A DNA stretch of 64,000 bases from Escherichia coli. Its GTDB lineage: Bacteria; Pseudomonadota; Gammaproteobacteria; Enterobacterales; Enterobacteriaceae. The notes under the pieces are model-generated. The model saw only the letters and a list, made by a program, of their open reading frames with translations. It searched no databases and was not told the origin of the DNA. The stretch lies in assembly GCF_009931435.1 (NCBI RefSeq), contig NZ_CP043414.1; one strand, given 5' to 3'. Below, in pieces: positions 30,020 to 40,038 of this stretch (within the stretch, counting starts at the first letter, position 1; each line of letters opens with the position of its first letter). The position numbers and the translations under genes were made by a program.

Positions 30020-30426
30020 GTGAAAAGGTGGTGTTCAGTCAACTGAGCCGTAAATTTATTGATGAGAACGATGCTACGCCCGCCGAGGCGCAGCAGGTGG
30101 TCTATTACAGCCTGGCGATTGGTCACCACCTTGGGGTTATCGATTGCCTGGAAGCCGCGCTCACCTGCCCGTGGGATGAATATCTGGCATGGATTGCCAC
30201 TCTGGAGGCGGGCAGCGAAGCCCGCCGCAAAATGGAAGGCGTGCCAAAATATGGTGAGATCGTTATCGACATTAACCATGTGCCGATGCTGGCCAACGCA
30301 TTCGATAAAGCCCGGGCAGCGCAAACTTCGCAGCAGAAGGAATGGAGTACCATGCTGTTAAGTATGCTGCATGATATTTATCAGGAAAATGCCATCTATT
30401 TGATGGTGAGGAGACTGCGTGACTGA
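30016..30426 (+). CDS. hycH: formate hydrogenlyase maturation protein HycH
   Basis: 136-aa ORF at conserved position. Confidence 0.9.
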
Positions 30427-30889
30427 CGTTTTACTCTGTGTTGGCAATAGCATGATGGGCGATGATGGCGCAGGTCCGCTGCTGGCGGAAAAGTGCGCCG
30501 CCGCGCCGAAAGGTAACTGGGTGGTGATTGACGGCGGAAGCGCACCGGAAAACGACATTGTCGCCATCCGCGAACTGCGCCCGACGCGACTGCTGATTGT
30601 CGACGCTACGGATATGGGGCTAAACCCCGGCGAGATCCGCATCATCGACCCGGATGACATCGCTGAGATGTTTATGATGACTACCCATAACATGCCGCTG
30701 AACTACCTTATCGACCAGTTAAAAGAAGACATTGGCGAAGTGATTTTCCTCGGCATCCAGCCGGATATCGTCGGTTTTTACTACCCGATGACCCAGCCGA
30801 TTAAAGATGCGGTAGAAACCGTTTATCAACGACTTGAAGGCTGGGAAGGGAATGGTGGATTTGCGCAGTTAGCGGTGGAAGAAGAGTAG
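30419..30889 (+). CDS. hycI: hydrogenase 3 maturation endopeptidase HycI
   Basis: 156-aa [23 protein letters not shown]…, HybD/HycI protease signature. Confidence 0.92.
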   Translation: MTDVLLCVGNSMMGDDGAGPLLAEKCAAAPKGNWVVIDGGSAPENDIVAIRELRPTRLLIVDATDMGLNPGEIRIIDPDDIAEMFMMTTHNMPLNYLIDQLKEDIGEVIFLGIQPDIVGFYYPMTQPIKDAVETVYQRLEGWEGNGGFAQLAVEEE

Positions 30890-30913
30890 TTTTTCAGTAA
30901 GGAATTCAGGGAA

Positions 30914-31687
30914 TTGAAAATCAGAACAGGGATGTGCGCTTTTTTATTTTGCTTAGTGCTTCCTGCGCAGGCTACCAGCTTTACCGAATATCTGCCAATG
31001 AGTGACAGCGAATACGCGCAAAAGCGGGCGCTGAAACCTCTCCTGACTATGCCTTATTATACCGAGCAAACCTGGCATTTTAGAAAAGTGGGCGTTGCTG
31101 GCGTGACGCTTGAGAAGATGCCAAATGAAGAGGATTACTGGCAATTAACTGCTAAAGACCGCGCCGGTAAATCCTGGAAGGTGCCTGTGGGTATGCTGGC
31201 AAATATGGCGGGCAAAGGGCAACTCTATCGCGCCGATCTGGATCGTAACGGCATTCAGGATCTGGTTATCTGGTTACCAAGTGCTGGTAATGGTCTGGCT
31301 CCTTATGCACATTTAATCCTTATGACGTTCACGCGCGATGGTCGTCCCTGTGTCTTTGAACCCTGGGGATTCTACACCGCAAGCAAAACTGGCGTAGATG
31401 ATTTGCTGGATTTGCAAGGCAATGGCCACACACAATTGCTGGATATGCAGTTTAATTCTGGTTACTGGATAACCAGTCTGTATCAGGTAAAAGACGCCAA
31501 ATGGCAACGTGTTCACGGCTGGTTTGGCAAGTTAAGCTATCCCGCGCTCACGCGTTTTACTTATACCCCCAACCGTAAACTCGTCCTCAAACCCATTGCC
31601 GGGCGTGACCCGCAAACGGAAGATTTAGCGCTGACGCAGCGTTGTTTGAGAACAGGGGATATGCTTGAAGGGGTGAATCAGAACTGA
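30914..31687 (+). CDS. hypothetical secreted protein with two DxDxNG-type motifs
   Basis: 257-aa ORF; N-terminal signal peptide (…CAFLFCLVLPAQATSF); motifs ADLDRNGIQDLV and DDLLDLQGNGHTQLL resemble FG-GAP/calcium-binding loops; no K-12 gene between hycI and ascB. Confidence 0.55.
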   Translation: MKIRTGMCAFLFCLVLPAQATSFTEYLPMSDSEYAQKRALKPLLTMPYYTEQTWHFRKVGVAGVTLEKMPNEEDYWQLTAKDRAGKSWKVPVGMLANMAGKGQLYRADLDRNGIQDLVIWLPSAGNGLAPYAHLILMTFTRDGRPCVFEPWGFYTASKTGVDDLLDLQGNGHTQLLDMQFNSGYWITSLYQVKDAKWQRVHGWFGKLSYPALTRFTYTPNRKLVLKPIAGRDPQTEDLALTQRCLRTGDMLEGVNQN

Positions 31688-31849
31688 CTTTTTGCAGAGT
31701 GGGTATGAGGATTTTGGGGGAGAATTATATCGCGCGCAAGTGTTTACATATTGTGAACTTGGATTTGGTGAGCTATAGTTTCTGAACACATAAGGATAGA
31801 ACTCGCAGATGTGGCTGTTTACTTACTATAAGGAAGTTAAAACTTAAAA

Positions 31850-32161
31850 ATGCACATCATTTCGAAAGCGCCATTTGAAGAGTCTGCGCGCAAATATCCT
31901 AACGACGCTCTGGCTCTACACTCATTGTATCGGGTTATTAAGGAAACGGATTTTTCTACGCCAGAAGAAATGCGAACGGCGTTTCCCAACCTCGACAATT
32001 TTAAATATCGTAACAAATGGTACGTTCTGGATGTAGGCGGGAACAATCTTAGGGTTATTGCCTACATAAACTTTGTTAATAAGCGGTTCTTTGTGAAGCA
32101 CATAACGAATCATGCCGAGTATGACAAACTGACACGTTACTACAGAGAGAACAGAGAATGA
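31850..32161 (+). CDS. higB: type II toxin, HigB-family mRNA interferase (RelE/ParE superfamily)
   Basis: 103-aa ORF; region FPNLDNFKYRNKWYVLDVGGNNLRVIAY aligns with the E. coli HigB segment FPSLDNFKYLDKHYVFNVGGNELRVVAM; toxin-first order with overlapping ATGA junction. Confidence 0.8.
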   Translation: MHIISKAPFEESARKYPNDALALHSLYRVIKETDFSTPEEMRTAFPNLDNFKYRNKWYVLDVGGNNLRVIAYINFVNKRFFVKHITNHAEYDKLTRYYRENRE

Positions 32162-32577
32162 CTGCTAATGCTGCACGCGCTGTTAAAGCAACAAGAGAAC
32201 TGGTCAATGCAGTCCCCTTTCTGGGAGGCAGTGACTCAGAAGATGATTATCGTGAAGCACTGGAACTGGTCGAATATTTGATTGAAGAAGATGACACCAA
32301 TCCACTTATCGACTTTCTGGCGAGCCGCATTGCAGAGTATGAAAACAACCACGAAAAGTTTGCAGAGTTCGACAAAGCCGTTGCTGCAATGCCGGTTGGC
32401 GTGGCGTTACTTCGCACGTTGATTGATCAACATAATCTGACCTATGCGGATTTGAAGAACGAAATCGGCTCTAAATCCCTGGTCAGTCAGATTTTGTCTG
32501 GACAAAGATCCCTGACGATATCCCACATTAAGGCACTTTCAGCCCGATTTGGCGTTAAGCCGGAATGGTTTCTTTGA
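32158..32577 (+). CDS. higA: type II antitoxin HigA (XRE-family HTH)
   Basis: 139-aa ORF; C-terminal HTH (…IGSKSLVSQILSGQRSLTISHIKALSARFGV…) closely resembles K-12 HigA; start overlaps higB stop. Confidence 0.8.
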   Translation: MTANAARAVKATRELVNAVPFLGGSDSEDDYREALELVEYLIEEDDTNPLIDFLASRIAEYENNHEKFAEFDKAVAAMPVGVALLRTLIDQHNLTYADLKNEIGSKSLVSQILSGQRSLTISHIKALSARFGVKPEWFL

Positions 32578-32602
32578 TTTTGACTGATGCCAAACGCCAG
32601 AT

Positions 32603-32684
32603 TGCCCGATGCGCTGCGCTTATCGGGCCTACATGTCGCACGAACTATGTAGGCCGGATAAGGCGTTCACGCCGCATCCGGCAC
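32603..32684. repeat. REP/BIME palindromic unit cluster
   Basis: Two inverted REP-like units (gcccgatgcgctgcgcttatcgggcctaca and gtaggccggataaggcgttcacgccgcatccggca) between higA and ascB. Confidence 0.8.
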
Positions 32685-32690
32685 GTTTGC

Positions 32691-35581
<2,891 letters not shown>

Positions 35582-39953: not shown

Positions 39954-40038
39954 TGCCGGATGCGGCGTGAACGCCTTATCCGGCCTACACATGCGCTCCC
40001 CGTAGGTCGGATAAGACGCGCCAGCGTCGCATCCGACA
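39954..40038. repeat. REP/BIME palindromic unit cluster
   Basis: Inverted REP units tgccggatgcggcgtgaacgccttatccggcctaca and gtaggtcggataagacgcgccagcgtcgcatccgaca between hypF and norW. Confidence 0.8.

Follow-up and report, generated by a model that had tools for sequence, protein, structure and literature searches.

A predicted higBA toxin-antitoxin cassette beside a resident gene between hycI and ascB of Escherichia coli

Known HigBA systems and the hycI-ascB locus

The HigB toxin of Escherichia coli K-12 cleaves mRNA in a translation-dependent manner and is neutralised by its antitoxin HigA (PMC2814082). A different activity has been described for the Salmonella Typhimurium pair SehA/SehB (STM4031/STM4030): SehA reportedly is no endoribonuclease and acts by inhibiting the RNase III-dependent maturation of rRNA, and substitution of eight of its residues abolishes toxicity (PMC12817084). 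The antitoxin SehB joins an N-terminal dimerisation and toxin-binding domain to a C-terminal helix-turn-helix (HTH); it binds two palindromes, at the -35 and -10 boxes, through which the pair represses its own promoter (PMC7160566). An earlier sehAB paper (PMC3868539) has been retracted. HigBAC systems have been reported to defend against lambda (bioRxiv 10.1101/2024.02.24.581848). Here we describe a toxin-antitoxin gene pair, higB-higA, in the hycI-ascB interval of a 64,000-nt stretch of E. coli DNA (RefSeq assembly GCF_009931435.1, contig NZ_CP043414.1), hereafter the window; coordinates are window positions unless another locus is named.

We consider it likely that this interval holds an old resident gene, here called hyp, and behind it a small inserted and autonomous type II toxin-antitoxin operon, higBA, which came from a mobile element and is decaying in E. 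coli. The 1801 bp from the stop codon of hycI (30889) to that of the convergent ascB (32691) contain three open reading frames (ORFs) on the + strand. The hycI-ascB region is 100% identical to that of E. coli 2020CK-00188, in which the Prokaryotic Genome Annotation Pipeline (PGAP) names the three products "hypothetical protein" (251 aa), "type II toxin-antitoxin system HigB family toxin" and "helix-turn-helix domain-containing protein". A sequence-only reading of the window had described the same order, a signal-peptide ORF, higB, higA and repetitive extragenic palindromic (REP) units, at a place where K-12 has hycI and ascB adjacent; the ORFs and PGAP bear out this layout, and the K-12 spacer measures 158 bp. 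That reading also took the pair for a second, diverged HigBA module. Canonical higBA (ygjNM) is present in 2020CK-00188 as well, between fadH and rlmG, and the hycI-ascB copy is therefore the second module of the strain. Global identity between the two modules is 38% for HigB and 46% for HigA, and 56% at the DNA level.

Three groups of known systems are close enough for comparison. The K-12 proteins (YgjN/YgjM; 5IFG, 6KML) share the PF09907 and HTH_3 domains, the gene order, the 4-bp overlap and nearly the same lengths (104 + 138 aa); the K-12 module differs in its fadH-rlmG location and in its operator, the control region being unrelated in sequence, and the two modules co-exist in one genome. 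SehA/SehB likewise has a toxin of the same Pfam family, of 103 aa and encoded first, and SehB has the two-domain layout of the window HigA, to which it is 42% identical. Autorepression through promoter palindromes is known on the SehAB side. The Salmonella pair differs in its chromosomal site, between yiiD and fdhE, in the longer N-terminus of SehB (142-148 aa) and in an upstream region that lacks the GTTTACA-N3-TGTGAAC palindrome of the window, so that the operator is a different one; RNase III inhibition, reported for SehA, is a candidate activity for the E. coli protein. The third group consists of HigBA pairs of plasmids and prophages (Klebsiella aerogenes IncFII, Leclercia and Enterobacter plasmids, Salmonella P22-like prophages, phage JK004). 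These have the 4-bp overlap and the same palindrome; unlike the window pair they lie on mobile elements and usually carry two intact operators, whereas the chromosomal copy has a longer leader and a single intact palindrome.

The nearest HigB homologues outside E. coli are 67-78% identical. Their genes are found beside repA on a K. aerogenes IncFII plasmid, in the early regions of P22-like prophages in Salmonella and near an integrase in Kosakonia; homologues also occur in 1043 plasmid records and in Cronobacter phage JK004. All of these relatives keep the 103 + 138-139 aa architecture. No donor closer than 78% identity was found. Since the subfamily resides mainly on plasmids and prophages, the cassette is most readily read as being of mobile-element origin.

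Literature searches by gene pair (HigB with hycI) and by WP accession returned nothing on this locus, and a review of toxin-antitoxin systems in adherent-invasive E. coli lists predicted higBA loci among which this one was not identified. The locus is an as yet uncharacterised representative of the known HigBA family; automatic pipelines have already given it a name in more than 1000 genomes. Annotated carriers include E2348/69, a Nissle-derived strain, and O26 and O111 strains.

Cassette junctions and the resident gene

The limits of the cassette were located by comparison with empty sites. Two genomes, E. coli E69 and the type strain of E. albertii, pass without a break from the hyp stop codon into the downstream flank (AACTGA|TGGCAAAC); Salmonella, E. 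whittamii and K-12 have closely similar junctions. At this point the window has an additional 900 bp, with ACTGA at both ends (Table 1). The comparison indicates that higBA alone was inserted, as a precise 900-bp cassette. Neither terminal inverted repeats nor a transposase were seen at the cassette ends or in the ORF list, a dedicated repeat search of the whole cassette not being part of this inspection. The GC fraction is 0.42 in higB, 0.46 in higA and 0.38 in the higB leader, compared with 0.49 in hyp, 0.56 in hyc, 0.52 in ascB and 0.53 over the whole window. The earlier impression that higBA is more AT-rich than its flanks is thus upheld by computation (0.38-0.46 versus 0.52-0.56).

The gene hyp lies outside the cassette. 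It directly follows hycI in Salmonella enterica (about 70% amino acid identity; gene order hycI-hyp-hydN), and it also follows hycI in Klebsiella spallanzanii, Phytobacter diazotrophicus, E. whittamii, Escherichia sp. MOD1-EC7003 and E. coli E69; in the E. albertii type strain it occupies the same position but is frameshifted. The higBA cassette is absent from the hyp site in every one of these genomes. This synteny indicates that hyp is ancestral at hycI and predates the divergence of Escherichia and Salmonella.

The short K-12 spacer retains traces of the gene. It opens with 21 nt matching the sequence upstream of hyp, after which comes the region of the hyp ATG; nucleotides 24-55 then correspond to the 3' end of hyp, agreeing with a form B allele (see below) at 29 of the final 32 nt, a stretch that includes the stop codon. 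The spacer therefore looks like a deletion scar, formed between two copies of CAGGGATGTGC at both ends of hyp. Matches to this K-12-type scar occur in 1930 of the 5426 RefSeq complete E. coli genomes that constitute our survey set, and O157:H7 has the same breakpoints with one REP only. K-12 is the deleted state for a periplasmic gene, and only 900 bp are truly accessory. The 1.7 kb by which the window exceeds K-12 would thus be the product of two events in opposite direction, loss of hyp in the K-12 type and gain of higBA. The sequence-only reading had regarded the whole 1.7 kb as accessory; the survey of the hycI-ascB junction across genomes sustains this for the 900 bp of higBA, and the outgroups and the K-12 scar remove hyp from it.

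An intact hyp with an empty higBA site was found in 0 of the 5426 genomes; the state is known from the GenBank strain E69 and from other Escherichia species. One record labelled E. albertii (L008) has the hyp-higBA arrangement. We set it aside as evidence for the antiquity of the cassette, because its sequences are near-identical to B2-type E. coli, with a DUF4259 protein that is 100% identical; the E. albertii type strain is without the cassette. In Escherichia sp. MOD1-EC7003 the hyp stop codon is followed by a 25-nt filler, CTTTTCACGACGAAGAATCAGTCAG, that has ACTGA on either side (L015 5770-5815). The filler begins like the left end of the cassette and may be the scar of a lost one. In K. 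spallanzanii a ParD-ParE pair and two SymE toxin genes stand between hyp and ascB in place of higBA (L010 4422-6814). Toxin-antitoxin genes may have landed repeatedly at the hyp-asc junction in different genera.

The REP units on the asc side had been proposed as an island boundary. Two units are indeed present, at 32603-32632 and 32653-32683, as an inverted pair forming a bacterial interspersed mosaic element (BIME) whose hairpin has a folding energy of -47 kcal/mol (z -3.8). However, REP units are found in the same place at the empty sites of K-12, E69 and the E. albertii type strain, so the BIME was there before the cassette, does not mark its boundary and is uninformative on the route of arrival. 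O157:H7 and form C genomes have a single REP. An exact copy of one unit is located 7.3 kb away in the window (39954-39984), and the REP sequence has a median of 31 matching places per genome. The ascB-side unit (32652-32696) scores 39.6 bits with the REP-derived Rfam family naRNA4, below the gathering score of 59.5. IS621, an IS110-family element, targets REP sequences, and in some genomes an IS621 insertion is present at the hycI-ascB junction.

Table 1. Features of the hycI-ascB interval (window positions)
Feature	Position	Strand	Basis
hycI, left flank; final gene of the hyc (formate hydrogenlyase) operon	30419..30889	+	ORF list and PGAP
hyp, probably ancestral gene for a predicted 257-aa periplasmic/exported protein with FG-GAP/VCBS-like repeats, outside the cassette	30914..31687	+	outgroup synteny
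ACTGA direct repeat, left copy, includes the hyp stop TGA	31683..31687	+	empty-site comparison
Predicted higBA cassette (promoter, higB, higA), 900 bp, directly after the hyp stop codon	31688..32587	+	empty-site junctions, GC
Putative HigA operator palindrome GTTTACAtatTGTGAAC, overlaps the -35 element	31742..31758	+	conservation in relatives
Sigma-70-like promoter TTGTGA-17-TATAGT for higBA	31751..31779	+	consensus scan, pattern match only
higB, 103-aa PF09907 toxin, SehA-like subfamily	31850..32161	+	Pfam, PDB matches
higA, 139-aa antitoxin, N-terminal toxin-binding/dimerisation domain and C-terminal HTH_3	32158..32577	+	Pfam, PDB matches
ACTGA direct repeat, right copy	32583..32587	+	empty-site comparison
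BIME of two inverted REP units, beyond the convergent 3' ends of higA and ascB	32603..32683	.	repeat and folding analysis
ascB, right flank	32691..34115	-	ORF list and PGAP

The hyp ORF begins at a TTG codon, 18 nt ahead of the ATG chosen by PGAP (30932). The upstream start is TTG or ATG in all alleles examined, and translation from it provides a signal peptide with its K/R n-region (MKIRTGMCAFLFCLVLPAQA|TS). The window protein has no Pfam, NCBIfam or PDB sequence match. Its family comprises 330 representative clusters, and among 64 members FG-GAP_3 matches were obtained in 22 at E<=0.1 and in 4 at E<=0.001. An AlphaFold2 model built from a 64-sequence alignment is all-beta with a predicted local distance difference test score (pLDDT) of 92, and its structural neighbours in the AlphaFold database are named "periplasmic or exported protein" or "VCBS/FG-GAP repeat". 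An AlphaFold model from a 13-sequence alignment (pLDDT 54) was discarded together with its PDB Foldseek matches, which are meaningless (all E >0.3). A periplasmic FG-GAP/VCBS-repeat protein is the best explanation of the product as modelled. The ratio of non-synonymous to synonymous substitution rates (dN/dS) of hyp is 0.12-0.31. The gene starts 24 bp after hycI and no terminator was detected between them, so hyp may be the last gene of the hyc transcript. We note that hyp (30932-31687, compared with L012 and L013) falls into two deeply diverged allele classes in E. coli, with 85-87% DNA identity and a synonymous divergence of 0.4-0.5. A replaced block at about residues 120-150 separates the classes, and their divergence exceeds that of the neighbouring hycI or higA in the same strains.

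Toxin, antitoxin and control region

The toxin-first, overlapping HigB/HigA pair of the sequence-only reading is confirmed by profile searches of both proteins. The two genes are on the same strand with higB first and share 4 bp (ATGA). HigB matches Pfam HigB_toxin (PF09907; RelE/ParE superfamily) at E 4.6e-23 over model positions 4-73 of 74, and its best solved structure is K-12 HigB (5IFG_A, E 7.6e-22, residues 1-100). NCBIfam gave nothing useful for HigB, HigA or hyp. In an alignment of 30 sequences that includes K-12 HigB, the family-invariant residues F35, P38, L48-D49-N50-F51, K56, L67-R68 and Y91 are all kept in the window protein, as are the near-invariant H88 and D92.

The effect of free HigB would be growth arrest through a block of translation, by analogy with the characterised members. 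By the same analogy two routes to such a block, mRNA cleavage as by K-12 HigB and RNase III inhibition as by SehA, are roughly equally likely. The sequence-only reading had credited the strain with an extra endoribonuclease. This is not secure, the closest characterised homologue being SehA, the reported non-nuclease (PMC12817084). That the window toxin would work as SehA does, and not as a nuclease, is a serious although tentative proposal. HigB is 56% identical to SehA and 38% identical to K-12 HigB. The eight residues required for SehA toxicity (Y53, D61, H88, Y91, K93, T95, Y97, Y98) are all identical in the window HigB, while K-12 HigB differs at positions 61, 93, 97 and 98; across the subfamily they are invariant or nearly so, except for the variable position 97. 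On the other side, the SehA mechanism comes from one study, in which SehA was assayed in vitro alone on total RNA, and proteins that are 56% identical need not share a target. Residues held in common with K-12 HigB (R68, H88, Y91, K56 and the DNF motif) also fit a ribosome-dependent RNase.

HigA matches Pfam HTH_3 (E 7.9e-9) with its C-terminal residues 85-138, and 5IFG_B (E 2.3e-35) with residues 9-138. It thus has an N-terminal helical dimerisation/toxin-binding domain and a C-terminal HTH, the reverse of the layout of P. vulgaris HigA. Compared with the versions on mobile elements, the HTH domain is 81-90% identical and the N-terminal toxin-binding domain 62-68%. Six relatives, among them form C E. 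coli, Kosakonia, the K. aerogenes IncFII plasmid and two Salmonella prophages, have a conserved palindrome ahead of higB, GTT(T/C)ACA-N3-TGT(G/A/C)AAC; relatives usually have two copies, at about -70 and about -30. The window form is GTTTACA-N3-TGTGAAC. A promoter-like site has the same position relative to this conserved palindrome as in the relatives.

These features suggest an autoregulated circuit. A sigma-70 promoter overlapping the palindromic operator would drive higB and higA as one translationally coupled transcript. HigA dimers, docking on the operator with their C-terminal HTH, would repress transcription, and the N-terminal domain would bind and neutralise HigB; on depletion of HigA, the freed toxin would stop growth by blocking translation.

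Probable decay of the cassette in the E. coli population

In the survey set 1091 genomes have higB and 2508 have higA; both genes are invariably chromosomal and present once per genome. Full-length hyp is found in 1462 genomes and a 164-nt hyp stub in a further 836. Five arrangements can be distinguished, with approximate counts obtained by subtraction on the assumption that the categories are exclusive. Form A, hyp-higB-higA, is that of the window and L013 (about 881 genomes); form B has hyp and an orphan higA (L003; about 581); form C has higBA without hyp (L004 and E2348/69, L027; about 210); forms D and E have the hyp stub and an orphan higA (L005, and L006 from the wastewater strain AVS0713; about 836); and the K-12 type has the hyp scar only (K-12, O157:H7; about 1930). 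About 1417 genomes, roughly a quarter of the set, therefore carry an orphan higA. The form C leaders (L004 1993-2153; L027 2335-2500) are 161-166 bp long and near-unalignable to window 31688-31849; only the operator palindrome and the Shine-Dalgarno region are shared, while the coding sequences are 97% identical.

The deletion of form B spans 31711-32122 and that of forms D and E 31096-32128. Both remove the promoter and nearly all of higB, and both end 30-39 nt before the higA start codon. The junction sequences differ, and the two deletions must therefore be independent, giving at least two events. In the sampled records higB without higA was never seen, and loss of higA alone was never found. 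Among six alleles the dN/dS of higB is 0.03-0.58, mostly below 0.25, and residues 53-101 do not vary. For higA the ratio is 0-0.18, orphan copies included, except in two very close pairs (0.30 and 0.62), and comparisons involving orphans show 15-16 synonymous and 0 non-synonymous differences; from one orphan to another the counts are 15 and 0. Ratios well below 1, together with the presence of the genes in more than 1000 genomes, show that higB and higA are not chance ORFs. Orphan higA appears to be under purifying selection, and the cassette as a whole appears to be decaying in E. coli by loss of the toxin and retention of the antitoxin. Repeated toxin loss with the antitoxin kept and conserved is what would be expected if the toxin was active when lost, and the conservation of the orphan suggests that it still does something. 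In a few E. coli, ORFs of about 200 aa (P0040, P0044, P0045) fuse the hyp signal-peptide stub to HigA, one of them named "HTH-type transcriptional regulator ygjM"; these fusions probably derive from form D deletions through frame changes or differences in gene calling.

Several observations weigh against an old resident gene followed by a single inserted and autonomous operon. The leader of form C is very different above a near-identical higBA coding sequence, which one simple insertion fails to explain. In the same strain pairs higBA has about half the synonymous divergence of hycI, so that the cassette must postdate the deepest E. coli splits or else have passed between lineages by recombination. 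From the clean K-12 junction one cannot tell whether the K-12 lineage ever carried higBA. In the control region, the second operator, at about -30 in relatives, is not intact in the window, and the promoter is a 9/12 consensus match of a kind no commoner here than in shuffled sequence. Finally, toxicity, neutralisation, operator binding and the transcription start at this locus are all drawn from sequence comparison.

It is fairly unlikely, but consistent with the conservation just described, that orphan HigA now serves a separate function, either as anti-addiction immunity against plasmid or prophage HigB or as a regulator expressed by read-through from hyc, an operon induced anaerobically, with the intact toxin perhaps a SehA-type RNase III inhibitor. 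The many mobile HigB relatives that such immunity would act against share the operator and are 68-78% identical.

Abortive infection of phage-infected cells is an unlikely main role for the cassette at present. Its proteins match two PADLOC profiles, PD-Lambda-2_A with HigB (E 1.9e-15) and PD-Lambda-2_B with HigA (E 2.1e-14), relatives sit in prophage immunity regions, and the reported action of HigBAC against lambda (bioRxiv 10.1101/2024.02.24.581848) lends the idea some plausibility. However, the PD-Lambda-2_B match covers only the first ~115 of 402 profile positions and there is no extra gene between higA and the REP units, for which reasons we rejected membership of PD-Lambda-2. The locus has no third gene or chaperone; HigA, at 139 aa, stops at the HTH without a ChAD-like tail; the locus lies outside any defence island; and the toxin has been lost repeatedly across genomes.

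That the module is a functionless remnant, its toxin inactive and its genes kept by inertia, is very unlikely. Orphan-higA genomes do outnumber the 1091 that keep higB, and several deletion forms exist, but higB and higA both remain intact and have dN/dS values that mostly lie under 0.25, the six alleles show no variation in the C-terminal half of HigB, orphan higA has accumulated synonymous changes only, and every deletion seen spares higA. A single 1.7-kb accessory island, REP-bounded, acquired by recombination and adding a RelE-type endoribonuclease, can hardly be maintained: the excess over K-12, the AT-rich higBA and the REP units on the asc side speak for it, but hyp follows hycI without higBA in Salmonella, Klebsiella, Phytobacter, E. 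albertii, E. whittamii and E69, has near-normal GC and has left remnants in K-12, and REP units stand at empty sites, so that we rejected the island on outgroup synteny, which together with the K-12 scar largely refutes it.

Our preferred reading, a resident hyp with an inserted higBA operon in decay, is of modest interest overall; the evolutionary part of the sequence-only reading proves half wrong and its enzymatic claim unproven. The result corrects a K-12-centred view of the locus. The label of mRNA interferase may be wrong for this toxin, given that its nearest studied homologue is reported as an RNase III inhibitor. The forms found in E. coli would also document toxin-antitoxin decay as a natural series, the toxin going first and the antitoxin being conserved, and this series may be used to explore ideas of anti-addiction or co-option.

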